A stretch of DNA of 26,003 nucleotides from an uncultured Planctomycetales bacterium (GCA_938003525.1 CALKYM010000058.1:1-26003); one strand, 5' to 3'. Counted from the stretch's first letter, positions 1 to 26,003 are shown. A program made the numbers and translations. Notes: generated by a model not told the origin, from the sequence alone.

Positions 1-696
1 GCACGAATAATGCGATTAGCGCGGTCGCGTAGGATCTGATTCTGGTGTGCTAGCGATGAGCGGATCGCAGCGCGCCCGGCCAATCTAGCCACGTTCGCGT
101 TCGATCATGCCCGCGCTGGAATCATGTGTACTCGGCATGCTGCCCTAGCCCTTGCCGGTAGCCCCAGCGAATGAGTTCCACATCGCGGCCGAGCAATCAA
201 CTGACTGCCGGGAGGAGAGCTGGAGCGGCCGATTGGTCATTGCGATTAGCCATTTATCGAGTTTCGGTCGCCAGAGACGGGCGTACACAAAGTCAGTCAG
301 ACCCTCGTGGCGAGCTCCCGCGACTGCGGCGGAAATCGCCTGATGACGCCAAGTTGACGCGCGCCGCAGGAACAACGACTCCCTCTCTGTGTGCGGAATC
401 GCGCAACGTCCCGCACACCATCTGTGTGCTTCGCGGCACAAAGGACCCGACCAACCCGGTAATTGGTCCTTCGTGACTGTGGAATTGATATCTCGATTTC
501 GCGGCGCACCGTTTGCAGATTACCGCGACCGCCAGATGCTCATGCGAAGCATAGTTCTGGTTCGCGACGAGTTGAGAGGGGGCCACGGTTTCTGAGTAGC
601 TCATCGGCGTTTCTCCCCTACAAGGGAGCAGATGCGCCCGCATCGAGGCAAGAGCGAGCGGCTGCCGACAGGGCAGCCAAGACGGAGTGGGCAGCC

Positions 697-2592
697 ATGC
701 ATGGCTATCGGGTTGAAGTCCCCTCGGCCGACTATTGGCGGCGACAGATCAATTGTCAGCAGGCATGTCCGGTGCACACGGACGCTCGCGGCTATGTGCG
801 AGCCATTGCCGACGGACGCTACGAGGATGCGTACCTGATCGCCCGTGGCCCTAATCCTTTGGCCTCTATTTGCGGCCGGGTATGCGGCGCGCCTTGCGAG
901 GCAGCGTGCCGTCGGGGCGATGTCGACGAGGCGGTCTCGATTCGCGCGTTGAAGCGATTCGTTACCGACAAGTTCGACGAGATCGCGCATCCTTCATCTC
1001 CCGAGTCCCTGATCGGGCGGCTGATCGAACATGCCCGGACGCGAGACTGCGGCCGCACGGAGGAGTTGAGCGCCTACCAGCACTTTCTGCAACAGGGCGC
1101 CGCGCGGTCGAACTCACGCGGCGAAAAGGTGGCGATCATCGGGTCGGGACCAGCCGGGCTGGCAGCAGCGCACGATCTTGCGCTGCTGGGGTTTCGACCG
1201 ACTGTTTACGAAATGGAACCTATTCCGGCAGGGATGCTCACTGTCGGAATACCGCAGTATCGGCTGCCGCGAAAGTTGATCGCGGCAGAGGTCGAGTTCA
1301 TCCGCCAACTCGGTGTCGAATTCGTCTGCAATACGACCGTCGGAGTCGACATTGGATTCGACGAGATCCGGGAGCAACACCAGGCAACGCTCATTGCGAC
1401 CGGGCTAAAGCGGTCGCGAGCGCTGCCTCTGCCAGGCTCGGATGCCAATGGCGTCCTGGGCGGAATCGAGTTTTTGCGGGATGTCGCGCTAGGCCATCCT
1501 ATCGATCTCCGCGGTGACGTCGTCGTGATCGGTGGTGGCAACGTCGCTTACGACGTGGCGCGGACCGTAATTCGCCAGACTTCCGTCGACATCTCACGCA
1601 CGGCGCTGCGCCGCCCCGAAGTACGGCAAGTGCATCTGTGCAGCCTGGAAAGCCTGGAAGAGTTGCCAGCCGACGACATCGAGATCATCGAGGGTGACGA
1701 AGAGGGCGTGCAGCGACACCACAGTCTGGGCCCCAAGGAGATACTCAAGGACGACTCAGGAAACGTGCGGGGCGTGGTCTTTCAACGCTGCGTTCGCGTC
1801 TTTGACGACCAGGGCCGGTTCAATCCGGTCTTCGATACAGAAGAACTGACCACGCTCCATGCAGACACGGTCTTGTGGTCGATTGGGCAAGCGCCTGATC
1901 TGTCATTCATTGGCTCCGATGGCGACGTAAGGCTCACGAAGAACGGTCTCATCGAATGCGATCCGGCGTCTCAGAAAACGACCGCGGCTGATGTCTTCGT
2001 TGCCGGCGATATTTCGTACGGCCCGCGTCTGCTGATCGATGCGGTTGCCAGCGGCAAACAGGCTGCGCGGCGGATCTGCACGTTCATTCGCGGCACGAAA
2101 CTGGTCGAAGAGCCGACGCTCGTTCAGATCAATCTGCCGGACTACAAGCGCGAAGCCGACTACGAAAAACTGCCTCGCACTGCCGTACCCACGCTGAGCG
2201 CTGCCGAACGACAACATAGCCACCAAGCTCTGGTCGAGGTCGGCTTTAGCGAAACGCACGCGGTGACAGAGAGCTGTCGCTGCCTGGACTGCGGCATCAA
2301 CACGATCTTCGACTCTGACAAATGCATCCTCTGCGGAGGCTGCGCCGACGTTTGCCCCGAACTCTGCCTGGAACTGGTCTCGTTGGACCGGCTCGAAGGC
2401 GATCAAGCCTTGACCGAACTCCTAGAGCGCCGCGTCGATCGCGAAGAGCTCGACGCCTGGTCGGCGATCGTCAAGGACGAAACGAAGTGTATCCGCTGTG
2501 CGTTGTGCGCGGAACGCTGTCCGGTCGGAGCCATCACCATGGAGCGCGTGGCGTTCCAAGCCGTGTGGTCGATCGAGAATCAGGCAACCTGA
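697..2592 (+). CDS. GltD/NfnB-like NAD(P)H-dependent FAD oxidoreductase fused to a C-terminal 2x[4Fe-4S] ferredoxin domain. The six-frame ORF opens at 463 with a non-ATG codon; ATG 697 (MHGYRVEV...) is the likelier start.
   Basis: N-terminal Cys-rich GltD-type FeS region (CQQACPVHTD ... ICGRVCGAPCEAACRRG). Rossmann dinucleotide motif VAIIGSGPAGLAAAHDLALLG, and a second one VVVIGGGNVAYDVA. The C-terminus has two ferredoxin CxxCxxCxxxCP motifs (CILCGGCADVCPE, CIRCALCAERCPVG). No signal peptide, so predicted cytoplasmic. ATG at 697 confirmed in the sequence. Confidence 0.8.
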   Translation: MHGYRVEVPSADYWRRQINCQQACPVHTDARGYVRAIADGRYEDAYLIARGPNPLASICGRVCGAPCEAACRRGDVDEAVSIRALKRFVTDKFDEIAHPSSPESLIGRLIEHARTRDCGRTEELSAYQHFLQQGAARSNSRGEKVAIIGSGPAGLAAAHDLALLGFRPTVYEMEPIPAGMLTVGIPQYRLPRKLIAAEVEFIRQLGVEFVCNTTVGVDIGFDEIREQHQATLIATGLKRSRALPLPGSDANGVLGGIEFLRDVALGHPIDLRGDVVVIGGGNVAYDVARTVIRQTSVDISRTALRRPEVRQVHLCSLESLEELPADDIEIIEGDEEGVQRHHSLGPKEILKDDSGNVRGVVFQRCVRVFDDQGRFNPVFDTEELTTLHADTVLWSIGQAPDLSFIGSDGDVRLTKNGLIECDPASQKTTAADVFVAGDISYGPRLLIDAVASGKQAARRICTFIRGTKLVEEPTLVQINLPDYKREADYEKLPRTAVPTLSAAERQHSHQALVEVGFSETHAVTESCRCLDCGINTIFDSDKCILCGGCADVCPELCLELVSLDRLEGDQALTELLERRVDREELDAWSAIVKDETKCIRCALCAERCPVGAITMERVAFQAVWSIENQAT

Positions 2593-2610
2593 AGCGAAAG
2601 CGAGTGACTG

Positions 2611-3105
2611 ATGTCGACTGAACCGGGCGGCGACTTGCAAAGCAGCCAACGCTTCGCGCCACCCCAAGAGCGACGCGACTTCCTCGGGTTAGCCGCCATT
2701 TGGTCGGCAGTCGGAGCGTGCGCGTTTGCTTTGATCGGCGCGCTACGGCTGCCGATGCCGTCGGTGTTTCCAGAGTCCAATCCGAAAGTCAAGCTCGGCC
2801 CTCCGAGTCGGTTTCTTGACGCCGAAGTGACGGCCCTCCCGGAGCAGCGGCTGTGGGTGTATTCGACTTCGGAGGGGATGTACGCCATTTCGGCCGTGTG
2901 TACCCATCTGGGATGCATCGTTGCCAAAGAAGAAGACGGGTACTTCTGCCCCTGTCACGGCAGCCGATTCGACGCGATGGGCAACGTTGTGGCGGGCCCG
3001 GCTCCGCGCGGCTTGGTTTACCTCGAACTATCGATTTCACCCGACGGTCAGTTGGTCGTCGATCGACAAAAGGAAGTCGCCGCCGCCGTTCGCTTGAAAG
3101 CATAG
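2611..3105 (+). CDS. Rieske [2Fe-2S] iron-sulfur subunit of a cytochrome bc-type complex, with a Tat-type signal/TM anchor.
   Basis: Rieske box I CTHLGC and box II CPCHGS, 17 residues apart. N-terminal [25 protein letters not shown] is a twin-arginine motif followed by a hydrophobic helix. The gene starts 19 bp after the upstream gene. Confidence 0.85.
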
Positions 3106-3153
3106 ACGAACCCCATCGGTCAGCTACACGGCTAGTCGACGAGACGGACGAAC

Positions 3154-4719: not shown

Positions 4720-7515
4720 ATGGATGCTCCTCAAGTCACGCGTCTCAAGGTCATCTTGCTCGCCAGCAGTCTGGCGTGTTTGGTGCTCTTGGTAATCGCC
4801 GCCTCGGAAGAAAACCTGCTGGGCGAATGGCAGGGACACCAGCGGGCGTACGCGCGCGTGCTTGCACAGCAGGACAGCGAGGACGGAAGCGCTTCTGCGT
4901 TTAGCATCGAGCCGCGGCAGTTGTTTCTGGCGGATCTGAGCCGCGTCGATCGATGCGTGAGCTGCCATGTCGGCATCGACAATCCGTCGATGCAGAGCGA
5001 ACGCCTGCCACTGGCCAGCCATCCCGGCGACCTGCTCGAACATCATCCCATGGACAGGTTCGGATGTACGATCTGCCACGACGGGCAGGGGCGAGCGACG
5101 GTTGCCGCCGACGCCCACGGCGACTCGCCGCATTGGCCCGAACCGCTCTTGCGCGGCGACTTGGTCTACACGAGTTGCAGCCGGTGCCACTACGAGAATG
5201 ACCTCTACGGTGGCGAGTCGGACCTCTACGGCCAGAACAAGCCGCTCGACTACGTCCGCCAGGGGGAACTAGCCGCCCACGTCCCGGGCGCGGACAACAT
5301 CGCCCGCGGGAAAGCCTTGATGGTCAGCCGCGGCTGCCTGGGCTGTCACAAGTACCGGGCGCGGGGAGGTTCGTTGGGACCGGACATTACGCACGTTGGC
5401 GACAAGACCGTACACGACTTTGACTTCCGTCATGTACATGGTGACTACACGGTCCTCAACTGGCTGGTCACACACTTCAAATCGCCGACGGCCGTCGTAC
5501 CCAACACGGTGATGCCCGACATGGGGCTCTCGGATCAAGAAGCACACGATCTTGCCGAGTACATGATGAGCCTCAAGCGCAAGGAAGCGCCGGCTGAATA
5601 CACGCCGCTGCCGCGGCCGGTCGATGCGACACCCATACGCGGTGAAACGCTCTACACGATGTACTGCTCGGCGTGCCACGGCTCAGATGGCGTCGGCGCA
5701 CTGGTCCGCTCGGCGGAGGAAGCCAAAGCGCTCGACCGGCCGCGTGAGTTACTCACGCCGTCGCTGCGCAATATCGACACATTGGGAGTTTCCAGCGATG
5801 CGTATCTGCGGGCCATCGTTGATCGGGGCCGACCCGGCACCAGCATGCCGGCGTGGGGAGTGGATGGTGGACTGAGCAGCGACGACATCGACTTGGTTGT
5901 GGACTTCATTCGCCGCTGGGAGCCACAAGCTGCCGATCATTCCTACATCTCGGCGACGCGCGGCGATGCCCACTACGGCGGCGCTTTGTTCCGCGCCAAC
6001 TGCGCCGCCTGCCACGGTAGCGACGGGCGGGGTGGCGAAGTCGGGATATCGCTGCGCTCTTTGACGTTTCAGTCCATTGCCAGCGATGAGTTCATCGCTC
6101 AAACCATCCTCCGCGGACGGGCGAACACGGCCATGCCGTCTTGGGCTGAGTTCGACAACCGCGAGGTTAGCGATTTGCTCGCGTACATACGGCAATGGCA
6201 GCCTTTGCGATCCCAGCGGAGTGAAGTCCTCGCCAGCAATGTGCTGGCGTCGAACACCATGCCGCAAGATTCAGTGGCAACCGGGCTCAAGTTGTACCGC
6301 AGCCGCTGCGCCGTGTGCCATGGCGAAGATGGCGAAGGCAAGATCGGGCCGTCGCTCAACAATCAGTCGGTGTTACCAGTCGTCTCCGACGAGTTTCTGC
6401 ACGACACGGTCGTTTTGGGACGTCCCGGCACCGCGATGCCGGCATGGCGACAGCTCAGTTCCCTCGACGTTGTCGATCTGATCGCCTTGCTGCGGAGCTG
6501 GCAGATCAAGCCGGCGCGCGAATTGGATCCGGTTGCCGTGACCGGCGACCCGCAGTATGGAGCGTTGCTGTTCGAAGGCATGTGCGTCAGTTGCCATGGA
6601 CCGAATGCCGAGGGCTCCATCGGACCGCAGTTGTCCAACCCGGTCTTCCTGGCTTCGGTCAGCGACGAAACGCTGTTTGAGTGGATTGCACATGGCCGCA
6701 CAGGCACGCAGATGCGGCCGTTTTTGAAGGGTGAACAGGGAATCGTCGGACTCTCCTCTCCGCAAATCGTGGACATCATCACGTACATTCGGTCGCTACG
6801 TGGCCAACGCCCGATTCACGGGCAACAAATCGGGCTCGGCTTCGCCCCGCGAGGCGAAGTCCTCTATCGCCAGATGTGCGCAAGTTGCCACGGCCCAGAC
6901 GGTGCCGGCGCCACCGGTCCAGCCATACGCAACCCGGACTTCCTGGCGGCCGTATCCGACGGGTTCTTGCGGGCCACCATCGTGCTTGGCCGCGACGGGA
7001 CGGAGATGCGCTCGATGGGCCACGGTGGAGCGGGAATCGTCGAACTGCGTTCCGAACAGATCAACGATCTGGTCGCGTACCTGCGCAGCGCCGAGGACTC
7101 GCAGGACATTGCCCATCGGTTTGTGATCGGTGCGGATCCGAATCGAGGACACACGCTGTACGGCCAGTATTGCGCTGGTTGCCACGGGACCGAAGGTGTT
7201 GGCAATTTCGCACCCGAGTTGAACAACGCCGGCTTTCTTCGGGCCGCCACGGATGGTTACTTACAAGCGACGATTATTCGCGGGCGGCGCGGGACAGCGA
7301 TGCGCCCGTTTGGCGCCGGCCGCGCCGGCCTGGCAGAGCTGCCGCAGCGCGACATCAACGACATTGTCGCGTTCATTCGCCAATGGAGTCCCGATACGCG
7401 TCCGTTGCAGCGCACGGAACCGTTTCCCGAGGTGCCGCGCGAACTTGCCGAACTGCAGCCACCCCTGCGAGCCTCTGAAGGAGTGGTCGGCGCTTCGGGA
7501 AACGGCGCAGAGTAA
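4720..7515 (+). CDS. Membrane-anchored decahaem c-type cytochrome. An N-terminal TM helix precedes a tetrahaem block and six tandem class-I monohaem cytochrome c domains.
   Basis: Ten CxxCH motifs: CVSCH, CTICH, CSRCH, CLGCH, CSACH, CAACH, CAVCH, CVSCH, CASCH, CAGCH. N-terminal hydrophobic helix LKVILLASSLACLVLLVIAA. The last six motifs each sit in a repeat of about 100 aa, of the form G..L(F/Y)...C..CHG.DG ... (T/A)MP(A/S)W or TxMR, which gives a Met axial ligand. The repeat ends in a conserved (Y/F)(I/L)R(S/Q)(W/L) tail. Confidence 0.85.
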   Translation: MDAPQVTRLKVILLASSLACLVLLVIAASEENLLGEWQGHQRAYARVLAQQDSEDGSASAFSIEPRQLFLADLSRVDRCVSCHVGIDNPSMQSERLPLASHPGDLLEHHPMDRFGCTICHDGQGRATVAADAHGDSPHWPEPLLRGDLVYTSCSRCHYENDLYGGESDLYGQNKPLDYVRQGELAAHVPGADNIARGKALMVSRGCLGCHKYRARGGSLGPDITHVGDKTVHDFDFRHVHGDYTVLNWLVTHFKSPTAVVPNTVMPDMGLSDQEAHDLAEYMMSLKRKEAPAEYTPLPRPVDATPIRGETLYTMYCSACHGSDGVGALVRSAEEAKALDRPRELLTPSLRNIDTLGVSSDAYLRAIVDRGRPGTSMPAWGVDGGLSSDDIDLVVDFIRRWEPQAADHSYISATRGDAHYGGALFRANCAACHGSDGRGGEVGISLRSLTFQSIASDEFIAQTILRGRANTAMPSWAEFDNREVSDLLAYIRQWQPLRSQRSEVLASNVLASNTMPQDSVATGLKLYRSRCAVCHGEDGEGKIGPSLNNQSVLPVVSDEFLHDTVVLGRPGTAMPAWRQLSSLDVVDLIALLRSWQIKPARELDPVAVTGDPQYGALLFEGMCVSCHGPNAEGSIGPQLSNPVFLASVSDETLFEWIAHGRTGTQMRPFLKGEQGIVGLSSPQIVDIITYIRSLRGQRPIHGQQIGLGFAPRGEVLYRQMCASCHGPDGAGATGPAIRNPDFLAAVSDGFLRATIVLGRDGTEMRSMGHGGAGIVELRSEQINDLVAYLRSAEDSQDIAHRFVIGADPNRGHTLYGQYCAGCHGTEGVGNFAPELNNAGFLRAATDGYLQATIIRGRRGTAMRPFGAGRAGLAELPQRDINDIVAFIRQWSPDTRPLQRTEPFPEVPRELAELQPPLRASEGVVGASGNGAE

Positions 7516-7665: not shown

Positions 7666-10398
7666 ATGCCGAAGCAACGAGATCTCTCGCCGTTCGACCG
7701 CCGCGCATTCATGAAGATGGCGGCCACCACCGGGGCGGCTGTCAGCGCCACGTCGCTTTATCCAGAGGAGTTCGTCCAGTCTGCTGCCGCCGCATCGGCA
7801 ACGCCTGCGGCGGGGATCAAGCTCTTGCAGTCTGCTTGTCCTTACTGCGGCGTGGGCTGTGGCACCTTGATCAAAGTTGAAAACGGTCAGGTCGTGGGCA
7901 TGGTGCCCGACAAGAAGCACCCCACCAATCAGGGCATTCAGTGCATCAAAGGGCTCAACGCGCACGAACCCATCTATCGCGATCGACTGACAAAGGTGCT
8001 GGTGCGCAAGGACATGAGCGATCCCCTCCGCGGGCACGTCTCCGGCACCAAGGGCCGCTTCGACGACGACGTGTTTGACGAGGTGTCGTACGAGGAAGCC
8101 GAAGAGATCGTCGCCGAGCGGATTGCTGAGATCGTCCGCGAACGAGGCGGAAACTCGATCGGATTGAACGGCAGCGGTCAGCTAACGATGGAGGCCCAAT
8201 GGATCGAAAACGTCTTGATGAAAGGCGTGCTGGGCAGCAACTCGATCGAGGCCAACGCGCGGATGTGTATGACTTCAGCCGTGACGGGCTACTTTCACAG
8301 CTACGGTTCCGATGCACCGCCCACCAGCTACGAGGACATTGAACAGGCGGACTTCATCACGTTTTGGGGACACAATGCCCGCGAGGCGCATCCGATCCTG
8401 TTTTGGCGCGTGGCCGACCACAAGCAACAGACGGATATTCCCACGCTGGTTGCCGATCCGCGCCGCACGGGATCCGTAATTGGGCTGGAGAACATCAATC
8501 CCCGCAACAGCCTTCACATCCAAACGCTCAATGGCGACATCAGCTATCAAAACGCCATCGCGCACGTACTGTTGACCAAGTATCCCGACGCGATCATGCC
8601 GGAAGACTGGTTGAAGGACAACGTCAACGGATACCGCGAATACATCGATGGAGTGCTCGAACGCTACTCGCCCGAGCAGGTTGTCGAGCGACTTCAACTG
8701 CTCGACCGCGGACGCGTGACGGTGGAGACCATTGAACAGGTCGCGCAGTACTGGGCCGACGCCACGCGCAAGGGGCGACAGCGCGGAAGAGGCGGCGTGC
8801 TTTCCTTCTGGGGTATCGGCTACAACCAGATGCTGCACGGTCAACACAACACGATTAGCATCATCAACCTCCACTTGCTGACGGGCAATCTCGGGCGGCC
8901 CGGCTGCGGCAGCCATTCGCAAACCGGTCAGCCCAACGCCATGAGCGAGCGGCTCATGGGCGGGCTCACCGGACGTTTGCCGTTTAATCGTCCGCTGTCG
9001 GACGACAACTGGCGCGACCACATTGCCGACGAGTGGGGCATCTCCCGCGAGCGACTCAAGCAGACGTCGATCATGCCCAACCCGGGTATGGCGGTTGGCT
9101 TGATGGAACGCGCGCTGAAGGACGACCTGTTGGCCATGTTTTGGATGTACACGACGCATGTGCACATGCCGGATCTGGATACGCTGGTTCGACCGGCGCT
9201 GACCAAGATGTTTTGCGTCGTGCAGGAAATCTATCGTCACGCGCCGAACCTGTTGTACGGCGATGTGATCTTTCCAGCATCGACATGGGGCGAATGGTCA
9301 GGCGGTACGTACATTCAGAGCGAGCGCCGTGTCTACGTGTGCGACGGCACAAACCATCCGCCGGAGAATTGTCGTCCCGATATGGACATGGCGATCGACA
9401 AGACGAAGCTGCTGGCCAAGAAGCTGGGACTCGATGCCGACAAGATCATGCCGTTCGAGAAGAAGATTCGCTCGGGCAATGGCCTCATGGTGTACGATCC
9501 CGAGGAGGTGTTTCGCGCCATTGCGGTAGCCAGCAAAGGCAGCGACGCAGATATGTCGGGGATGATCGAGGTCGAGCAACGCGACGGCATCAGCGTCTAC
9601 GACCAACTCCGCGAATTGCGCGGCGTGCAGTGGCCCGCACCCACCTACGACATCGCACGAGCTGGTGGGACTCCGCGTCGGTACCTGGGCCAGGAAGGGT
9701 GGGCCGGCAAACCGTACGGTGCGTTTCGCCACCCGGATGGCAAGGCCCAGATGAAGCTGTGCGAACAATCGTACGACCGCATCCACGAGATCACCGACAA
9801 GTTGATGCAGTACGGTCATCGCGACCGACCCGGAGCGGGGCCCTACTTCGTCGACGACATTGCGCAGGCCAAAGCAGAAGGCCGCAAGAATCTTCTGGAA
9901 GAAGCCAGGGATGCTGCGCTCACCCCCGAGCTACCAGACCTGGAAGTCTATGCCGACGCAACGCTCGGCTTGGACGACCACAAACGCCAGGACGTCTATC
10001 CGTTCTGGCTGGGACTGGGAATCGTCTACGAGCACTTTCACACGGCCAAGACGATTCGCGGCGCGACAACCCGCAAGCTCGTTCCCGAGCAGTACGTCGA
10101 GATGAGTGTCGGCGACGCGCAGCGCTTCGGGCTTCGAGACGGCGACCCCGTTCGGCTGGTGACGCGGCGCGGGACGTATGAAGCGCGCGTCACGGTCGGC
10201 TTGCAAAGCGAGCTGCGACCCTCCCGGAGCGAGTTGCCCGAGGGCTACCTGTTCAGTCCTTGGAATCTCTCGGTGGCCGATAGTGCTGATCCGACCAAGA
10301 ACCGCTGGCTGGTGAACGCCGTCAGCCATCGGGCCTGGGACCCTGTGAGTGGCCAGGCAGATTTCAAGAAGCTGGCAGCGCGGATCGAAAGGATCTGA
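7666..10398 (+). CDS. Tat-exported bis-MGD molybdopterin oxidoreductase catalytic subunit in the Nap/Nas/Fdh clade. Probably a periplasmic NapA-like reductase, but the substrate is not determinable from sequence.
   Basis: Twin-arginine signal DRRAFMKMAATTGAAVSATS. N-terminal [4Fe-4S] motif CPYCGVGCG ... QCIKG, which is CX2CX3C plus a distal Cys. MopB-type core, 910 aa. C-terminal molybdopterin-binding-like segment VEMSVGDAQRFGLRDGDPVRLVTRRGTYEARV. SD-like AAAGGA lies 9 nt upstream of the ATG. Confidence 0.8.
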   Translation: MPKQRDLSPFDRRAFMKMAATTGAAVSATSLYPEEFVQSAAAASATPAAGIKLLQSACPYCGVGCGTLIKVENGQVVGMVPDKKHPTNQGIQCIKGLNAHEPIYRDRLTKVLVRKDMSDPLRGHVSGTKGRFDDDVFDEVSYEEAEEIVAERIAEIVRERGGNSIGLNGSGQLTMEAQWIENVLMKGVLGSNSIEANARMCMTSAVTGYFHSYGSDAPPTSYEDIEQADFITFWGHNAREAHPILFWRVADHKQQTDIPTLVADPRRTGSVIGLENINPRNSLHIQTLNGDISYQNAIAHVLLTKYPDAIMPEDWLKDNVNGYREYIDGVLERYSPEQVVERLQLLDRGRVTVETIEQVAQYWADATRKGRQRGRGGVLSFWGIGYNQMLHGQHNTISIINLHLLTGNLGRPGCGSHSQTGQPNAMSERLMGGLTGRLPFNRPLSDDNWRDHIADEWGISRERLKQTSIMPNPGMAVGLMERALKDDLLAMFWMYTTHVHMPDLDTLVRPALTKMFCVVQEIYRHAPNLLYGDVIFPASTWGEWSGGTYIQSERRVYVCDGTNHPPENCRPDMDMAIDKTKLLAKKLGLDADKIMPFEKKIRSGNGLMVYDPEEVFRAIAVASKGSDADMSGMIEVEQRDGISVYDQLRELRGVQWPAPTYDIARAGGTPRRYLGQEGWAGKPYGAFRHPDGKAQMKLCEQSYDRIHEITDKLMQYGHRDRPGAGPYFVDDIAQAKAEGRKNLLEEARDAALTPELPDLEVYADATLGLDDHKRQDVYPFWLGLGIVYEHFHTAKTIRGATTRKLVPEQYVEMSVGDAQRFGLRDGDPVRLVTRRGTYEARVTVGLQSELRPSRSELPEGYLFSPWNLSVADSADPTKNRWLVNAVSHRAWDPVSGQADFKKLAARIERI

Positions 10399-10399
10399 C

Positions 10400-11047
10400 A
10401 TGCCAGTCGATCGTCGCTCATTCTTGCGAAACGTAGCCGGTCTTGCCGCCGTGTCGACTGCCGCGGCCGGCACTTCGGGATTGTGGAGCGGAGGTGCGCA
10501 AGCAACAGACGCTCCTCTGCGGCCACCAGGAGCCCTTCCGGAGGATGAATTCCTCTCCACGTGTATCCGCTGTATGCGCTGCGTCGACTCGTGCCCGAAC
10601 CATTGTCTCGAGTCGACGCCTGTCACGGCAGGCGCCCAAATTGCGGGCACGCCGCAAATGCATCCGCGACGTCAGGCGTGCATGTTGTGCAGCCGGGCTG
10701 AGGGTGACTACTTACGGTGCACGGCCGCCTGTCCCACCGGAGCCCTGCGGCCCATCAAGAAAGACATTCTCCAGATTCGAGAGCACGTCCGCATTGGTGT
10801 GGCCGAGATCGATCTGAATCTGTGCTACTCGTACAACAACTATACGTGCGGCACCTGCTTTCATGCCTGCCCGCTGCAAGGCGAAGCCATCACGCTGGGC
10901 CTTTGGGAACGGCCGCAAGTGCATCCCGAGGCGTGCATCGGCTGTGGCCTTTGCGAGCGCGCCTGCATCCGTTACCCGCACGCGATTCGGGTCAAAGCGA
11001 CGGACAGACCGCACCAGCAGGAACCCGCATCGCCCTCTTCGTCATGA
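10400..11047 (+). CDS. Tat-exported NapG/MauM-like periplasmic polyferredoxin with four FeS cluster motifs. This is copy 1.
   Basis: The six-frame ORF opens at 10349. The internal ATG at 10400 sits 2 nt after the upstream TGA, with AAAGGA 6 nt upstream. RRSFLRNVAGLAAV is a Tat motif. Cys motifs CIRCMRCVDSCP, CMLCSRAEGDYLRCTAACP, CYSYNNYTCGTCFHACP and CIGCGLCERAC. Confidence 0.75.
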   Translation: MPVDRRSFLRNVAGLAAVSTAAAGTSGLWSGGAQATDAPLRPPGALPEDEFLSTCIRCMRCVDSCPNHCLESTPVTAGAQIAGTPQMHPRRQACMLCSRAEGDYLRCTAACPTGALRPIKKDILQIREHVRIGVAEIDLNLCYSYNNYTCGTCFHACPLQGEAITLGLWERPQVHPEACIGCGLCERACIRYPHAIRVKATDRPHQQEPASPSSS

Positions 11048-11676
11048 ATATCTCGCGGCGTACATGGTTGCAATTGTTTCGGCGCGGCGTTCGCGGCCTC
11101 GCGTTTGCTGGAGCCTGGATCGCGCTGGCCGTGGCGTTGCGCCGACCTGCGGCGCCGCGACATACGGCGCGACCACGTGTGGACGAACCACAGGAGTTCA
11201 CCTTTCGGCCACCCGGCGCATTGCCGGAATCCGACTTTCTGGCTCGCTGTATCCATTGTTATCTGTGTCAGGACGTCTGTCCGCCCGGGTGCATCTTGAT
11301 GAAGCCCGACACCGAGCCGGACCGCCATACTCCGTACATCACGCCTCGCCTCAAGGCCTGCACGCTGTGTCTGAAGTGCTGCGACGTCTGCCCCACCGGC
11401 GCGCTCACGCGGCTATCGAACAAGCGTGACGTGCAGATGGGCCTCGCTGCGGTGGACGAGACGATCTGCGTTTCGCATCTGCGGACCGGCGCCTGCGGAG
11501 CCTGCTTCACTGCGTGTCCCTTGAGGGGCGATGCGATCACGCAGGGATTGTACAACGCACCGTACGTCAACCCCGAGCATTGCACGGGTTGTGGACTGTG
11601 CGAAGAGGTGTGCATCGTCCCCTATCGAGCCATCCGCGTGTATCCAACGGAACACGTGTCGGAGGGTGTGGCATGA
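11044..11676 (+). CDS. Tat-exported NapG/MauM-like periplasmic polyferredoxin, copy 2.
   Basis: The ATG at 11044 overlaps the upstream stop (ATGA). The product begins MNISRRTWLQLFRRGVRGLAFAGAWIALAVA, a Tat motif plus a hydrophobic region. Cys motifs CIHCYLCQDVCPPGC, CTLCLKCCDVCPTGA, CVSHLRTGACGACFTACP and CTGCGLCEEVC. The listed ORF 10717..11676 is the same frame with a spurious upstream extension. Confidence 0.75.
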   Translation: MNISRRTWLQLFRRGVRGLAFAGAWIALAVALRRPAAPRHTARPRVDEPQEFTFRPPGALPESDFLARCIHCYLCQDVCPPGCILMKPDTEPDRHTPYITPRLKACTLCLKCCDVCPTGALTRLSNKRDVQMGLAAVDETICVSHLRTGACGACFTACPLRGDAITQGLYNAPYVNPEHCTGCGLCEEVCIVPYRAIRVYPTEHVSEGVA

Positions 11677-13322
11677 TAGGCCGCCTGATCCCGCCGATTC
11701 GCCGCACGGTGCAAGTGCTAAGCCTGCTGTTGGTCGGGCTGTTGCCGGTTCTCGCACTGTACACCCATCATCATGAAGCCCACGCGATCGACGACCTTCC
11801 GACCGACGACTGGCGCACGGCGGCGATTCGCACGGTCGATCGCGTCGTGGGCGATGATGAAGGCCGCGAGCATTTGGCCAAAAGCACGCAGGGAACTATC
11901 TGGTCGCTGCGACTCGCGGGATACAGCGTGTCAGATCCGTTGGCGGGTGCTGAGGCGATCGTCACGAGCCGCAGCTTTTACCAACCGCTGATGTGGTCGG
12001 TGCTGCTGCCGATTGTCGCCAGCCTGTTGCTGGGCCGTGTGTTCTGTGGGTGGATCTGCCCGGTCAACACGCTGTTGGAAGTCGTCGACCGTGGCCGTCG
12101 CCTGTTGCGGATTGCCGAAATTCGCCCCAGGGACGTCAGGTTCTCGCTGTGGAACAAGTACCTCGTGCTTGCGCTTGGACTGCTGATCGCTGGCGTCACT
12201 TCCGTGCCGTTCTTGGCTCTGTTCTATCCGCCCGCCGTGCTCAGTCGCGAAACGCATCTGTTCGTTTTCGGGGCGACGTTGGGATTGGGGCTGTACTTCT
12301 TGCTCGCCATTGTCCTGTTTGAACTCTTCGTCAGCCGGCGTTGGTGGTGCCGCTATATGTGCCCAGGCGGCGCGCTGTATTCGCTCTTCGGTCACTTGCG
12401 GGTTGTCCGAGTACGGCGCGACGACGACAAGTGCGTCAAGTGTGGCGAATGCGTCCGTGTCTGCCAGTTCGACCTGCGACCCATGTTGCACCACACTACA
12501 GGCTCTGAGTGCACCAACTGTGCGGCGTGCATCTCGGTTTGCGATTCCGATGCCTTGCACTACAGGTTGACGGCACCGCTCCCCATTCTTCACCCTGATC
12601 GCGCGGCCGTTTCTACAAGAGCCCCTGAGTCCGCCGCGCCGGAGGCGGAGCCGACGGAGGACGATCGACGTTCATCTGCGACATCCAAGGTGCTGCATAG
12701 CGGGCTGGGCCTGCTGCTGGCTTGCTTCATCACGAACCAAGCCCACGCGCACCATATTCTCGGACTGCCACACTACTCCTACAAAGACAACTACCCTCAA
12801 GCGCCGACCCTCGAGTATCCCGCCACGACGGGACCTTACCAGGTGCTGATGACCTGTTATCCAGGCACGCCGGTGCCGGGCGAAGCGTCGACCGTGGCCT
12901 TCTATATCAAGCATATTCAGGGCGACACGCCGTACGCTCAACCGGTAACCATGCGCGTGCTGCAGACCTTCACATTCGGTTCGAGCCGCGAAATCGTCGC
13001 TCCATCGCAGCGCGAGCCCTTCGACAATCAACACCGCTACACGGTCACGTTTCCGCAAGACGGCGAATACATTGTCGAGTTGACCATGGATGTCGAGGGC
13101 CGGCCGGAAGTGATTCCGTTCCTGGTGGTGTGCGGCAATCCTACAGCGACCAAGTCGATAGTCGTCTTCCTGGGCGGAGGGCTGGCCGTGTTCCTGGTTT
13201 CTGTGCGCGCGATCAAGAAAAAGCGTGAGCGCCGCGCCACAAAAGCGCGGTCACGCGGCAAGCTGACAAACGAGACAACTTCTTCCGCCGAACAAGATAC
13301 AGCCTCGCCGCTGGCTCACTGA
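11673..13322 (+). CDS. NapH/MauN-like integral-membrane iron-sulfur protein with two CX3CP motifs and two [4Fe-4S] motifs, plus a C-terminal extension of about 230 aa ending in an extra TM helix.
   Basis: The ATG at 11673 overlaps the upstream stop (ATGA), with GGAGGG 7 nt upstream. TM helices are present. GWICPVNTL and WWCRYMCPGGALYS are CX3CP motifs. CVKCGECVRVCQFD and CTNCAACISVCDSD are ferredoxin motifs. The C-terminal region (HHILGLPHYSYKDNYP ... VVCGNPTATKSIVVFLGGGLAVFLVSVRAIKKKRERR) has a soluble domain flanked by hydrophobic helices. Confidence 0.7.
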   Translation: MIGRLIPPIRRTVQVLSLLLVGLLPVLALYTHHHEAHAIDDLPTDDWRTAAIRTVDRVVGDDEGREHLAKSTQGTIWSLRLAGYSVSDPLAGAEAIVTSRSFYQPLMWSVLLPIVASLLLGRVFCGWICPVNTLLEVVDRGRRLLRIAEIRPRDVRFSLWNKYLVLALGLLIAGVTSVPFLALFYPPAVLSRETHLFVFGATLGLGLYFLLAIVLFELFVSRRWWCRYMCPGGALYSLFGHLRVVRVRRDDDKCVKCGECVRVCQFDLRPMLHHTTGSECTNCAACISVCDSDALHYRLTAPLPILHPDRAAVSTRAPESAAPEAEPTEDDRRSSATSKVLHSGLGLLLACFITNQAHAHHILGLPHYSYKDNYPQAPTLEYPATTGPYQVLMTCYPGTPVPGEASTVAFYIKHIQGDTPYAQPVTMRVLQTFTFGSSREIVAPSQREPFDNQHRYTVTFPQDGEYIVELTMDVEGRPEVIPFLVVCGNPTATKSIVVFLGGGLAVFLVSVRAIKKKRERRATKARSRGKLTNETTSSAEQDTASPLAH

Positions 13323-13446
13323 AGCCGGGCAAACGAAACAACGCGAAACGCAAGCCCGCACTGGTGACAGCTCGCCCCGTTCAGATCTGACAGACGCGAC
13401 ATTCGCAACAACAGCCTAAGACCGACGCCCTACTGAGAACCGACCG

Positions 13447-15447
13447 ATGCGGGCCCTTGTCAAGATATTCTTGCCGTATTCTGTATTGTTGGCTGTCGCC
13501 GTCGCGGTGTACGTGTCGACATTCCGCGCCCCTTCGCAGGCGAGTTCTGCTCCCGAGCGCGGCGAGGAATCGACGCCGCTCGATCCGGTGTGCCACATGG
13601 AAGTCAACCCGAGTTGGCAACATCAGGCGACGCACGAGGGCGAAGTCTACTGGTTCTGCACCAGTCGTTGTCGCGACCGCTTCGTCGCTTCCCCCGACTC
13701 ATTTCTCGGCGAGCGCTGCGTCGTGTGCAACGACTTGGTGGAAGCCGATGCGTCGTTGCCGGCGACCTATTTGGGCAAAACCTACCACCTCTGTTCTCAA
13801 GAGCATCGCCGCGAGTTCAAAGCCGACCCGGCGGCGTTCTTCATGCACACCATGTGGGGCATCCCTCCCTGGTTGTACTACGGATCGATTGCCGGTGTGC
13901 TCGTCGTCAGCTTCGGTGTTTTCGAGCGACGGGATCGAAAGACTTCATCGGGAACCCTTTCGGTCTCACCGTCGGGCGAGCTGACTCTGGACGATAAACC
14001 TAACACGTCGTTTGTACGCAGCGCTGCGGAACGAATCGATCTGCTACGCAGTCCACTGCTTCGCGCGGTCTTCACATCGCGGCGGCTGCGCTTTTGCGCG
14101 CAGGCCACGATGGTTCTGCTCTTCTTTCTGATCATTGCCGCCGGGCTGTTTGGCAATCAGAACCCGGCATTGAACATCGCGCCCATTCTGACATGGACCG
14201 TCTGGTGGGGCGGCCTGGTTGTGTTGATCATGTACGCCGGCAAGGCCTGGTGTTACATGTGCCCCTGGGACGCCGTTGCCGGCTGGATGGCGAAACTTAG
14301 ACTTTGGACCAAGACCGATGAGCGGCTCGGGCTTGATCTCAAGTGGCCGCCCGCCGTTCGCAACATCCTCGTCGCCACGTTGCTCTTCGTCGGTCTGACC
14401 TGGTTCGAACTTGGCTTCGGCGTGACGATGCGCCCGCGTGTGACTGCCTATCTGGCGATCGCGATGTTGCTGATGGCCATCGTCTCCGCGTTTTTGTTCG
14501 AGCGCCAGAGTTTCTGCAGATACGGCTGTCTGGTGGGCCGCGTGAGCGGCCTGTATGCCATGTTCTCCGGCGTTGAGGTCCGCGCCCGCGACGAAGCGGT
14601 TTGTCGCACGTGCGAGGGAAAAGAGTGTGTGCGCGGTAGTGAAAACGCCTATGGCTGTCCGACGTTTCTTTATCCGGGCAAGCTCAAAACCAACACCTAC
14701 TGTATTCAATGTACCGAGTGCATTCAGGCCTGCCCGGAGGACAATCTGACGATCAATATGCGTCCCTGGGGGGCCGACTTGGCCGCCGAACATCGGCCGC
14801 GGCAGGACGAGGCCTATCTGGCTCTGCTGATGCTGGCAATCACGGGCTTTCACGGGCTGACCATGACGCCCAACTGGGCGCTGCTCACCGGCTGGATGAG
14901 CGAAGTCTTTTCACTGGGACGCGTGATTGCCTTTACGCTCGGAATGACCTTGCTGCTCTTGGCGCCGATCGCCGTCTACGCCGTGTTGATTGGAGTGTCT
15001 CACCGCTTGGCGTTGGGCACTCGACACATCGAGAGGCGCGACCTCACCTACGGCGACTACTTCATTCGCTACGCGTACGCTTTGCTGCCCATCGCGCTCT
15101 TCTACCATCTCGCACACAATCTCGAACACCTGCTGCTGGAAGGGCCGAAGGTTGTGGCGCTTTTTTCCGATCCGTTCGGCTGGGGCTGGAATCTGTTCGG
15201 CACGAGCGATTGGGTGGTGCCGCCACTCGTCTCGCTCGAGGCACTGTGGATCGTACAAGTGCTGCTCGTGCTGGTGGGCCACGTCTACAGCCTGTGGGCG
15301 GCCCAACGCACGAGCGTCAACATCTTTGGCAGCCACAAGGTCGCGTTCCGCAGCCAACTCCCGATGCTCGTCGGCATGATTGCCTTCAGCGTGTTCAGCC
15401 TCTGGCTGCTCAAACAGCCCATGGAAATGCGGACCAGCGCCATGTGA
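13447..15447 (+). CDS. Membrane polyferredoxin of the CcoG/FixG/NapH family with two N-terminal YHS/TRASH metal-binding domains. Putative metal (cupric) reductase.
   Basis: N-terminal signal/TM MRALVKIFLPYSVLLAVAVAVYV. YHS-type motifs DPVCHMEV...YWFCTSRCRDRF and CVVCNDLV...YHLCSQEHRREF. Multiple TM helices. WCYMCPWD and FCRYGCLVG cysteine motifs. C-terminal ferredoxin motif CIQCTECIQACPEDN, plus CRTCEGKECV. Gene follows the NapH-like gene after 124 bp on the same strand. Confidence 0.7.
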   Translation: MRALVKIFLPYSVLLAVAVAVYVSTFRAPSQASSAPERGEESTPLDPVCHMEVNPSWQHQATHEGEVYWFCTSRCRDRFVASPDSFLGERCVVCNDLVEADASLPATYLGKTYHLCSQEHRREFKADPAAFFMHTMWGIPPWLYYGSIAGVLVVSFGVFERRDRKTSSGTLSVSPSGELTLDDKPNTSFVRSAAERIDLLRSPLLRAVFTSRRLRFCAQATMVLLFFLIIAAGLFGNQNPALNIAPILTWTVWWGGLVVLIMYAGKAWCYMCPWDAVAGWMAKLRLWTKTDERLGLDLKWPPAVRNILVATLLFVGLTWFELGFGVTMRPRVTAYLAIAMLLMAIVSAFLFERQSFCRYGCLVGRVSGLYAMFSGVEVRARDEAVCRTCEGKECVRGSENAYGCPTFLYPGKLKTNTYCIQCTECIQACPEDNLTINMRPWGADLAAEHRPRQDEAYLALLMLAITGFHGLTMTPNWALLTGWMSEVFSLGRVIAFTLGMTLLLLAPIAVYAVLIGVSHRLALGTRHIERRDLTYGDYFIRYAYALLPIALFYHLAHNLEHLLLEGPKVVALFSDPFGWGWNLFGTSDWVVPPLVSLEALWIVQVLLVLVGHVYSLWAAQRTSVNIFGSHKVAFRSQLPMLVGMIAFSVFSLWLLKQPMEMRTSAM

Positions 15448-25018: not shown

Positions 25019-25091
25019 GAGTTGGTACGGGAGTCGAACCCGTGACAGCCAGATTAGCAGTCTGGTGCTCTAACCACTGAGCTAACCTCAT
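25019..25091 (-). tRNA. tRNA-like gene with anticodon GCU, a class-I (short variable arm) body, and a 5' acceptor strand that does not pair with the 3' strand. Possible pseudogene or atypical tRNA.
   Basis: Minus-strand read: TA-GCTCAGTGGTTAGAGC (canonical D arm), then CCAGA-CTGCTAA-TCTGG (anticodon arm, U33, anticodon GCT), variable CTGTC, T arm ACGGG-TTCGACT-CCCGT (A58 present), and 3' acceptor ACCAACT + C. The 5' strand is ATGAGGT, so only 4 of 7 acceptor pairs form. GCU (Ser) tRNAs normally have a long variable arm, which is absent here. Confidence 0.4.
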
Positions 25092-25268
25092 GGCGGTTTC
25101 GTCTTCGCTTTCGTCAGAACCCAGTCACGGAACGCACGGAACCAACCGCTTTACTGGGGCGCCGTGCGCCGCTGGCCCAGCGATCGCAAAACCTTGCTTG
25201 CAAAGAGACGCCTTGGGTGTGCGTTCGCGCCGTAGCATCTCTCTGTGCAGCACTGATGCCGATGTCGT

Positions 25269-25289
25269 GTCCTTGCCAGGAACCGAACC
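25269..25289 (-). pseudogene. tRNA 3'-end fragment (T arm plus acceptor 3' strand), a near-copy of the 3' end of the tRNA at 25378..25450.
   Basis: Minus-strand GGTTCGGTTCCTGGCAAGGAC versus GGTTCGATTCCTGGCAAGGAC in the intact tRNA, which is 20 of 21 identical. A58 is replaced by G, the T stem would be mispaired, and there is no matching 5' acceptor, D arm or anticodon arm upstream. Confidence 0.35.
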
Positions 25290-25377
25290 AGCAACCGAGC
25301 ACGGCCGCCTCGAATGGCAGCCGTGCGCAGGGCGGTAGCGATTGCACAGGCGGCACTCTCGAGCGCGTGCTGCAAAA

Positions 25378-25450
25378 TGTCCTTGCCAGGAATCGAACCT
25401 GATCTTCGACCTTCGCAAAGTCGCGTGCGAATCCGGCACACTCCAAGGAC
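25378..25450 (-). tRNA. tRNA, Arg-like by anticodon (GCG as read). A canonical 73-nt cloverleaf with no encoded CCA.
   Basis: Minus strand: GTCCTTG / GA / GTGT-GCCGGATTC-GCAC / G / CGACT-TTGCGAA-GGTCG / AAGA / TCAGG-TTCGATT-CCTGG / CAAGGAC / C. Perfect 7-bp acceptor stem, and TTCGATT is a textbook T loop. The anticodon loop gives U33 and anticodon GCG, which is unusual for bacteria. Confidence 0.6.
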
Positions 25451-25531
25451 AATCTACCGAGCACAATCAACCGAGCACGCTTGCCAGATGGCAAGCGTGC
25501 GCCAGGCGATAGCCCTGTGTAGCTTCGGTAG

Positions 25532-25603
25532 CAGCCCGCCGAGGAATCGAACCCCGTCTTGCAGATCCGAAGTCTGCCGTGCGGTCCAGCACACTCGCAG
25601 GCC
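25532..25603 (-). tRNA. tRNA, Arg-like by anticodon (UCG as read). Its backbone is closely related to the tRNA at 25378..25450.
   Basis: Minus strand: GGCCTGC / GA / GTGT-GCTGGACC-GCAC / G / GCAGA-CTTCGGA-TCTGC / AAGA / CGGGG-TTCGATT-CCTCG / GCGGGCT / G. The acceptor stem has 5 Watson-Crick pairs plus 2 G-U pairs. It shares the GA-GTGT...GCAC-G...AAGA...TTCGATTCCT skeleton with the neighbouring tRNA. Confidence 0.55.
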
Positions 25604-26003
25604 GTGTTGTAGTGGAGCTCGCTGAAGAGCGATACGCCTCAGCTTCTTCTATTGGCAACTCGACTATCGCGTTCTGCCTCTCTCCTCCCTCATCGGTCGG
25701 TGGCAGAACTTGATAGAGCCGACGACTGGATTCGCACCAGCATGATCCGCTTTACGAGAGCGGCGCCTTTCTCACTCGAGCCACGTCGGCAAATGACTTA
25801 TCGGTGCAGCGTTGTGGCCGGTCCAAGTCTGAATTGGTTCGCGCCAAGTCGGTTTGACTCAGGGTGCCACTGGCTGCTCACCAGCCAGTGAGGAGCTTCG
25901 GCAACTCACGTGGCCAGCAATTCTTGAATCGCAGCCCGTGGCACCTTCAGTTCAAACTTGAGCCAACAAGAAACTCAGCACTATCGCACAAGCAGGAGTG
26001 CCA

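Follow-up and report, generated by a model that had tools for sequence, protein, structure and literature searches.

The window analysed here, a stretch of 26,003 nucleotides from an uncultured Planctomycetales bacterium (GCA_938003525.1, CALKYM010000058.1:1-26003), carries a gene cluster in which a gene for an iron-sulphur (FeS) flavoprotein stands first, followed by genes for a Rieske protein, a cytochrome b, a multihaem cytochrome c and a NapA-like molybdoenzyme (Table 1). The flavoprotein most likely wires the Rieske/cytochrome b complex to cytoplasmic NADH. Its enclosing open reading frame (ORF) extends over 463-2592 (+) with the stop codon TGA at 2590-2592, and translation from ATG 697 gives a protein of 631 amino acid residues. 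An earlier note on this DNA had preferred ATG 697 to a start at 463, and that choice is well supported because M1 is nearly invariant (similarity begins within the first six residues in an alignment of 48 sequences), because the best 120 homologues are 586-666 and mostly 626-662 residues long, and because the GC content at third codon positions is 0.54 in the extension 463-696 and 0.71 in the gene. The longer ORF beginning at TTG 463 was rejected on the same counts, namely the drop in third-position GC content, homologues that start at the ATG and homologue lengths of about 630 residues.

Pfam searches of the flavoprotein returned Fer4_20 (PF14691, the N-terminal FeS domain of GltD and dihydropyrimidine dehydrogenase, DPD) at residues 18-95 with an E-value of 2.5e-18, Pyr_redox_2 (PF07992) at residues 144-453 with an E-value of 2e-26, and 4Fe-4S dicluster families at residues 537-616. 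Two Rossmann signatures, G149-S-G-P-A-G and G279-G-G-N-V-A, bear out the flavin adenine dinucleotide (FAD) and NAD(P)H motifs reported in the earlier note, and the dicluster matches do the same for its C-terminal 2x[4Fe-4S] domain. Its description of a GltD-type N-terminal FeS region held in part: the Fer4_20 match is there, but it covers only profile positions 30-110 of 113, and the usual first CxxC pair of the CxxC...CxxxCP motif is missing. The absence of a signal peptide was confirmed, with no Tat or Sec motif by inspection and no hydrophobic segment in the protein (the maximum 19-residue Kyte-Doolittle mean is 1.55, below 1.6), and the flavoprotein is therefore predicted to be cytoplasmic and soluble. 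The AlphaFold2 (AF2) model has a predicted local distance difference test score of 90.9 and a predicted TM score of 0.91. Some members of the family carry N-terminal extensions with TPR repeats, a response-regulator receiver domain or nothing recognisable.

Homologues of the flavoprotein number in the thousands, and the top 120, at 62-99% identity, come from Planctomycetota including Pirellulaceae, Planctomycetaceae and Phycisphaerae. Taking one genome per species, we collected 80 loci (L003-L082) with 51-81% identity. All of them are in metagenome-assembled genomes (MAGs), with no record title naming a cultured isolate, and they belong to Planctomycetota, Myxococcota/Deltaproteobacteria, Acidobacteriota, Nitrospirota, Verrucomicrobiota, Gemmatimonadota, Binatia, Latescibacterota, Eisenbacteria, Hydrogenedentota, Armatimonadota, Cloacimonadota and others. 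Among the species representatives, the nearest shows 81% identity to the window protein, and a 99%-identical protein lies on an 11-kb metagenome contig in the European Nucleotide Archive. To examine synteny, the window proteins were compared with 82 loci by tblastn. In 77 of the 77 loci with downstream DNA, the flavoprotein gene is immediately followed by a Rieske gene on the same strand, often with an overlap; in the other five the contig stops at most 114 bp past the flavoprotein gene. Genes for cytochrome b and a multihaem cytochrome c are then present wherever the DNA suffices, with one exception (L022). The proposal of the earlier note that the gene encodes a candidate cytoplasmic NAD(P)H entry or exit site for the membrane complex is strongly supported by this synteny.

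The gene order survives at 39-48% identity (L083-L086). Two of these distant loci (L083 and L084) combine a split cytochrome b and subunit IV with a 713-residue cytochrome c, an FeS subunit and a DmsA-like enzyme, another (L085, 2241-13284) has two tandem copies of the four-gene module with a cupredoxin-like gene in front, and the last (L086) has the four-gene module with the alpha subunit of a type II dimethyl sulfoxide (DMSO) reductase. Overall, a molybdoenzyme gene follows the module in 60 of 87 loci, encoding a NapA-like enzyme in 36, a type II DMSO-reductase-family alpha subunit in 22 and a DmsA-like enzyme in two, and the loci without a molybdoenzyme call are mostly truncated contigs. 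Type II and DmsA-like enzymes were seen joined to the module in L045, L060, L074, L078, L083 and 19 further loci. The type II alpha subunits have 1144-1159 residues and are pNar/Nxr-like in size, and the beta and gamma subunits were confirmed beside alpha in L060. What is conserved is thus the four-protein unit of flavoprotein, Rieske protein, cytochrome b and multihaem cytochrome c, which is combined with different periplasmic molybdoenzymes; this suggests that the module is a general electron-supply unit for such enzymes. NapG and NapH, considered as partners of the flavoprotein in place of cytochrome b, were ruled out by the persistence of the module in loci that lack both.

A few loci depart from this arrangement or add to it. 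In L022, from a Planctomycetaceae MAG, the ORF that follows the Rieske gene (2366-3133) reads by eye as an extracytoplasmic function sigma factor and not as cytochrome b, and the break is either an interruption or an assembly artefact. In L007 (12425-15006) and L011 the Rieske and cytochrome b genes are separated by an insertion of about 2.7 kb with three ORFs, and by eye these ORFs read as hybrid-cluster (Hcp-like), globin-like and macro-domain proteins. An Hcp-like ORF also follows the Rieske gene in L031, and ScdA and Rrf2 genes lie upstream in L001 and L002. If these readings hold, such neighbours hint at a nitrosative-stress or N-oxide context.

The FeS ligands of the flavoprotein are conserved across the same loci. 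Those of the N-terminal FeS domain (Table 1) are invariant or nearly so in the 48 sequences and in 85-86 loci, and all eight cysteines of the C-terminal ferredoxin domain are invariant in both comparisons. The RCLxC segment R528-C532 is invariant in 48 of 48 sequences and 87 of 87 loci. Taken together, the 16 cluster cysteines and R528 are invariant in 85-87 loci, the sole exception being one substitution of C59. In GltD and NfnB the RCLxC pair precedes the FeS domain; here, as in StnC and NfnA, it follows the flavin domains, where it probably supplies the missing first CxxC pair, as in StnC. The counterparts of C24, C63 and C67 in the alignment to Csac NfnA are C108, C147 and C151, and K86, invariant in the 48 sequences, aligns with K170 of the same protein, the lysine of the NfnA/StnC group. 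Four [4Fe-4S] clusters can be predicted by homology, with the ligands C24/C63/C67/K86 (C59 being nearby), C20/C71/C529/C532, C543/C546/C549/C608 and C598/C601/C604/C553. The cluster held by C24, C63, C67 and K86 is predicted to be proximal to FAD, and the wire is predicted to run on through the C-terminal domain towards the membrane complex.

Searches by sequence and by fold gave the same order of matches: NfnA, StnC, Thermococcus NfnABC (9n5u_A), NfnB/NfnI-L, GltD and DPD. In phmmer searches of the Protein Data Bank the best hits were 9bov_A (NfnA of Caldicellulosiruptor NfnABC, E-value 2.1e-88) and 8oh5_C (StnC of Sporomusa, 3.6e-81), and the matches to NfnB/NfnI-L were weaker (2.2e-57 and 1.3e-55). 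Foldseek placed 9bov_A, 8oh5_C and 9n5u_A on top and also gave a probability of 1.00 to NfnI-L, NfnB, DPD and GltD. Every curated NCBIfam model scored below its cut-off, those of GltD, gltA and DPD type by a wide margin. The best was NF009410 (405 versus 516 bits), and the models for GltD and gltA fell further short: TIGR01317 (GOGAT_sm_gam) with 199 versus 447.7 bits, TIGR01318 with 189 versus 483 bits and gltA with 239 versus 472 bits. No GltB-, DHODH-, NfnA/NfnS- or NuoEF-like gene was found among the ORFs of the window, and the syntenic loci inspected likewise hold no NfnA/NfnS partner (FAD and [2Fe-2S]). With curated models this far below their cut-offs and a Rieske gene next in all 77 loci with downstream DNA, the best homologues are not the stand-alone GltD or DPD subunits that would have spoken against a link with the membrane complex.

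The second Rossmann fold bears on nucleotide specificity. The strand that follows GGGN(T/V)A terminates in Y-R-R-[TSG] in StnC, the two NfnA proteins, NfnI-L and Xfn. In the window protein S316-L317-E318-S319 stands in place of this YRR[TS] 2'-phosphate motif, E318 is retained in 85 of 87 loci, and the strand itself (309-315) is present in the AF2 model. As a general rule for Rossmann folds, an arginine pair binds the 2'-phosphate of NADPH and an acidic residue selects NAD. Given the replacement of YRR by S-L-E and this rule, the clade of the window protein is predicted to use NADH and not NADPH.

Downstream of the flavoprotein gene the cluster continues on the same strand. The stop codon is separated from the Rieske ATG at 2611 by an 18-nt spacer; the earlier note had the Rieske gene follow directly, which is correct, and the gap as 19 bp, which is one too many. 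The first four genes are separated by 18, 48 and 12 nt. Co-transcription of the flavoprotein and Rieske genes is plausible in view of the 18-nt gap and the lack of a terminator-like site at their junction; promoter and terminator scans of the window gave counts no higher than in shuffled sequence and are uninformative on operon limits. The Rieske protein has the motifs CTHLGC and CPCHGS-R-F, with serine present and phenylalanine at the tyrosine position. The nearest solved protein to the fused cytochrome b is cytochrome b6 (9.6e-36). Its haem ligands H128/H142 and H241/H256 have b6-type spacing and are invariant or nearly so, and its b6-type n-side motif W-R-I-R-K-D-G-G is conserved. The CxGG cysteine for haem cn is absent, with glycine at that position (T-L-G-L-G), and H59 (in an N-F-F-L-H motif), C485 and H517 are further invariant residues (67-76 loci). 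The nearest solved structures to the NapA-like protein are NapA 2jio_A (9.7e-69) and 2nya_A (1.5e-68). From 7666 to 15447 (+) the window thus holds a nap-type cluster without napB and napC, whose products the decahaem cytochrome c may replace. The remaining genes of the window encode DUF1501, CBS, band-7 and other, unrelated proteins.

Table 1. Features of the window; positions are counted from its first nucleotide.
Feature	Positions	Strand	Basis
Soluble FeS flavoprotein gene, 631 residues, GltD/NfnB/StnC-like module with C-terminal 2x[4Fe-4S] domain	697..2592	+	Pfam, NCBIfam, phmmer against the Protein Data Bank, AF2, Foldseek
N-terminal FeS domain, residues 19-95, with C20, C24, C59, C63, C67, E68, C71, K86	751..981	+	Fer4_20 match
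FAD-binding GxGxxG (G149-S-G-P-A-G)	1141..1158	+	Pyr_redox_2 and NAD_binding_8 matches; G149 and G151 invariant
Second Rossmann fold, G279-G-G-N-V-A through strand beta2 to S316-L317-E318-S319	1531..1653	+	Alignments to 9bov_A, 8oh5_C, 5vj7_A, 5jca_L, 9n5u_A
R528-C529-L-D-C532 (RCLxC cysteine pair) after the flavin domains	2278..2292	+	Aligns with RCLEC of 9bov_A and 8oh5_C
C-terminal 2x[4Fe-4S] ferredoxin-like domain, C543/C546/C549/C553 and C598/C601/C604/C608	2305..2544	+	Fer4 family matches
Rieske [2Fe-2S] protein, Tat-like RRDFLG, one transmembrane helix	2611..3105	+	PF00355, motifs, hydropathy
Fused cytochrome b6-like and subunit-IV-like protein, 517 residues	3154..4707	+	Pfam, NCBIfam
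Membrane-anchored decahaem cytochrome c, 10 CxxCH, three N-terminal multihaem-type and seven class-I domains	4720..7515	+	Pfam, motif count, N-terminal transmembrane segment
Tat-exported NapA-like molybdopterin oxidoreductase, 910 residues	7666..10398	+	Pfam, NCBIfam
NapG-like Tat-signal ferredoxin, first copy, RRSFLR	10400..11047	+	NCBIfam NapG 2.2e-39
NapG-like ferredoxin, second copy; start overlaps the preceding stop codon	11044..11676	+	NCBIfam mauM_napG 4.5e-30
NapH-like membrane FeS protein with long C-terminal extension; start ATG 11673 or upstream GTG 11514	11673..13322	+	NCBIfam napH 8.3e-41, transmembrane segments
YHS-domain and NapH-like polytopic membrane protein	13447..15447	+	PF04945 YHS, napH_ 2.3e-11, transmembrane segments

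About 300 nt upstream of the flavoprotein start lies a perfect inverted repeat, TGTGCGG-N14-CCGCACA (390-417, +; 0 expected in shuffled sequence), in a stretch of about 700 nt in which no ORF has a Pfam match. It recurs in the closest relative (L003, 1085-1112) and in none of the other 86 loci; a conserved operator was therefore rejected, and the repeat could be a lineage-specific operator or RNA hairpin. An Rfam scan of the window found nothing in the 700-nt upstream region and only three consecutive tRNA genes elsewhere (25024-25790, -; RF00005, 41-56 bits).

To the observed domain content, conserved ligands and conserved gene order we add a scheme whose docking, cofactor chain, NADH specificity and direction of electron flow we infer. 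We consider it probable, though well short of certain, that the gene product is the cytoplasmic (n-side), NAD(H)-binding and non-bifurcating subunit of the Rieske/cytochrome b complex. Hydride would be exchanged between NAD(H) and a single FAD. From there a linear wire of four [4Fe-4S] clusters, held by C24/C63/C67/K86, by C20/C71/C529/C532 and, for the last two, by the C-terminal domain, would conduct single electrons to the fused cytochrome b and its n-side haems, possibly by way of an extra haem on H59. On the p-side, the Rieske protein would pass electrons to the decahaem cytochrome c and on to the periplasmic NapA-like nitrate reductase. Menaquinol would be oxidised at the quinol-oxidising (Qo) site, with one electron going downhill through the Rieske protein and cytochrome c to nitrate and the second, low-potential electron going through the b haems and the FeS wire to NAD+. 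The resulting NADH would re-enter complex I, and energy otherwise wasted by a periplasmic, non-electrogenic nitrate reductase would be recovered.

The direction of flow in this scheme, reduction of NAD+ by the low-potential Qo electron, follows the proposal made for anammox bacteria, in which bifurcation at the Qo site would drive the reduction of NAD(P)+ and the other electron would go to nitrite (PMC12954380). For the window we regard this direction as about evenly balanced. It is favoured because the module is tied to periplasmic, non-electrogenic high-potential enzymes, because the energetics would be feasible by the argument made for anammox bacteria (PMC12954380) and because the NADH could be recycled by complex I. 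The serine of the Rieske protein, which raises its potential, is also counted for the NAD+-reducing direction. The molybdoenzymes that partner the module are all periplasmic and, so far as is known, handle high-potential couples.

The same subunit and wire could also run in reverse, from NADH through FAD and the FeS clusters to haem bN and the quinone-reducing (Qi) site, making the flavoprotein a built-in NADH dehydrogenase that reduces quinone and primes a Q-cycle for the nitrate reductase, by analogy with the proposed input of FNR or ferredoxin into cytochrome b6f. We hold this to be a serious rival, though a less likely one. Oxidation of NADH is thermodynamically downhill, the closest solved relatives run from NAD(P)H through FAD to FeS clusters in assays, an NADH-type motif suits a catabolic donor, the carriers come mostly from organoheterotroph phyla, and the conserved n-side motif of cytochrome b is of b6 type. 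However, electrons entering at haem bN would compete with the one from the Qo site, and the Q-cycle would tend to stall, there would be no energetic gain over a separate NDH-2, and the specific tie to periplasmic high-potential molybdoenzymes would be left unexplained; for anammox-type complexes, moreover, the presence of a functional Qi site has been questioned (PMC12954380).

Two further explanations would change the role of the protein itself. The earlier note had associated its architecture with flavin-based electron bifurcation, in which the FAD would act as in NfnB and split the electron pair of NAD(P)H, for example between the N-terminal clusters and the C-terminal ferredoxin domain. 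The homology to NfnB and NfnI-L fits this, as do the FeS modules on both sides of the flavin domains and R189, which is conserved in the 48-sequence alignment and equivalent to NfnB R201, the arginine hydrogen-bonded to flavin N5 in the bifurcating enzyme. The same arginine is also present in the non-bifurcating StnC, about 6 A from flavin N5 (PMC10482914). In both StnC and Bfu-type NfnA, the nearer relatives, the homologous FAD is however non-bifurcating although this arginine is kept, and hydride from NADPH is fed into a linear [4Fe-4S] chain (PMC10482914; PMC11829005). Their FAD-proximal cluster is held by three cysteines and a lysine (K170), where the bifurcating NfnB has glutamate (PMC10482914; PMC11829005), and K86 is a lysine. 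In addition, the RCLxC pair would tie both FeS modules into one chain and not two exits, the bifurcating examples of the family use NADPH whereas YRR is lost here, and the window lacks the FAD/[2Fe-2S] partner of NfnA/NfnS type. The association with bifurcation was thus not upheld; a bifurcating FAD appears very improbable, and the sequence matches group the flavoprotein with the non-bifurcating StnC/NfnA module. It could, on the other hand, be a stand-alone soluble NAD(P)H:acceptor oxidoreductase that is merely co-regulated with its neighbours and serves ferredoxin reduction, the repair or maturation of FeS or molybdenum enzymes, or the cytoplasmic clusters of NapH. Many soluble enzymes make promiscuous use of GltD-like modules, the protein has no anchor, and the downstream genes include some for NapH-like proteins, whose FeS sites face the cytoplasm. 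Nevertheless, we think this unlikely: its place just upstream of the Rieske gene is kept across more than 10 phyla and down to 39% identity, the linkage holds in loci without NapG or NapH, and in anammox bacteria the NAD(P) oxidoreductase subunit co-migrates with the homologous complexes (PMC12954380).

Several points weigh against the flavoprotein as an NADH-linked subunit of the complex. It lacks a membrane anchor, no fusion of its family to a membrane subunit was found, and its binding to cytochrome b is proposed from gene order and homology. The prediction of NADH as the nucleotide draws on a general rule for Rossmann folds, and a few distant Rieske-linked relatives keep the NADPH-type YRR. 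The likeness to the anammox oxidoreductases is by published description and not by sequence, so that orthology is indirect, and with a fused cytochrome b that lacks haem cn the electron path of the AlphaFold 3 (AF3) models of the anammox complexes need not transfer. Finally, the carriers look like organoheterotrophs, with no obvious need for quinol-driven NAD+ reduction.

The idea that a Rieske/cytochrome b complex can drive NAD(P)+ reduction by quinol bifurcation was proposed for anammox bacteria, which are slow-growing and, so far as is known, genetically intractable, and it has been debatable ever since. The architecture described here occurs in at least 10 other phyla and in a simpler form, with a fused cytochrome b and no haem cn and with a periplasmic enzyme of the nitrate-reductase type beside it, and therefore offers many alternative sources for heterologous expression, biochemistry and cryo-electron microscopy. 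We put forward, as no more than a tentative suggestion, that NAD+-reducing Rieske/cytochrome b complexes are widespread in many phyla, bifurcating at the Qo site with one electron going to a periplasmic molybdoenzyme and the other to NAD+, and with the NADH reoxidised by complex I. If so, the charge yield per nitrate would rise roughly from about 2 to as much as 6, and otherwise non-electrogenic periplasmic reductases would become strongly energy-conserving. The reading makes a testable prediction, namely a preference for NADH over NADPH and a stigmatellin-sensitive, nitrate-dependent quinol:NAD+ activity; should it hold, textbook H+/e- ratios of periplasmic nitrate respiration will need revising. 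If instead the module oxidises NADH, it would be a new route for NADH electrons into complex III. Its main value is that it makes the open anammox question testable in many other lineages.

Among known systems, the likeness to FNR on cytochrome b6f, where cyclic input has been proposed, is functional only: both place an NAD(P)-linked flavoprotein at the n-side of a b6-type complex, but FNR belongs to an unrelated family and has no FeS wire. In Caldithrix abyssi, Rieske/cytochrome b genes lie in a napA-napG-napH cluster without napB and napC (Cabys_2557-2564), and quinol electrons have been proposed to reach NapA via multihaem cytochromes (PMC5317091); unlike in the window, no GltD-like flavoprotein is described there, and the cytochrome is the tetrahaem NapM and not a decahaem protein (PMC5317091). 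With NfnB/NfnI-L, GltD and DPD the window protein shares the Fer4_20 domain and two Rossmann folds, and with DPD also four clusters per chain, but it has lysine in place of glutamate at the proximal cluster and no NfnA, GltB or FMN/pyrimidine partner.

Closer still are StnC of Sporomusa ovata StnABC (8oh5) and NfnA (9bov/9bp5 and 9n5u), which have in common with the window protein a lysine-ligated proximal cluster, RCLxC after the flavin domains and a linear C-terminal continuation of the FeS chain. In contrast to these, the window protein has no NuoG/FdhF-like domain and ends after its 2x[4Fe-4S] domain at residue 631, its YRR motif for NADPH is replaced, no BfuB/BfuC (NuoF/NuoE-like) partners are encoded in the window, and the predicted end point of its wire is a membrane haem protein and not a bifurcating FMN. 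It also has an extra cysteine, C59, where StnC has glycine.

The closest counterpart at the level of the whole system is found in anammox bacteria. Kuenenia has two Rieske/cytochrome b complexes, Kuste4569-74 and Kustd1480-85, with putative NAD(P) oxidoreductases Kuste4570 and Kustd1483, and the subunits of each co-migrate as a complex (PMC12954380). The earlier note had pointed to kuste4569 as the counterpart of the flavoprotein; kuste4569 is the Rieske protein, and the counterparts are the two oxidoreductases just named (PMC12954380). These and the window protein are soluble FAD/NAD(P) FeS proteins encoded inside an operon for a Rieske protein, cytochrome b and multihaem cytochrome c, they have four FeS clusters and FAD with a lysine at the proximal cluster (the clusters of the window protein being predicted), and their best structural homologue is NfnA of NfnABC (9bp5/9bov). 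In AF3 models of the anammox complexes, haem b and FAD are connected by a path of four FeS clusters, with a buried lysine at the FAD-proximal cluster and 9bp5 as the nearest structure; at the dimer interface, His43 (Kuste4571) or His62 (Kustd1481) is predicted to hold an additional haem b, with Arg247 or Arg266/Lys267 near its propionates (PMC12954380). In the window cytochrome b, the spacing from H59 to R261 (of the I-R-K motif, R261/K262) is 202 residues, compared with 204 in both anammox proteins; going by this numbering, H59 is a good candidate for the ligand of such an extra haem. The Rieske protein of the window also has Ser and Phe at the potential-tuning pair, as does Kustd1480, which was measured at +335 mV (PMC12954380). 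A route to the anammox proteins through P0194 (in L087, with the gene order cytochrome b, subunit IV, flavoprotein, multihaem cytochromes) gave no link, its nearest relatives being Desulfobacterales proteins with a different C-terminus.

The window differs from the anammox systems in several respects. Its flavoprotein gene stands first in the operon. Its cytochrome b and subunit IV are fused and lack CxGG, whereas the anammox complexes have a short b6-type protein with CxGG and a separate five-helix subunit IV. It has the NADH-type S-L-E in place of YRR, and its p-side partner is NapA-like (pNar/Nxr-like or DmsA-like elsewhere) and not an octahaem protein of the HAO type. The hosts are non-anammox MAGs of many phyla. 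Comparative genomics had already noted that NAD(P)-binding FeS proteins accompany cytochromes b of subfamily G "in many other cases" and that the long cytochromes b of clade G' lie within large conserved operons of unknown function (Dibrova et al., PMC5600118). The system is thus of a kind known from the anammox complexes and from comparative genomics, and the locus in the window is a variant of it, with the flavoprotein gene in first place, a fused cytochrome b without haem cn, an NADH-type motif and a Nap-type partner.

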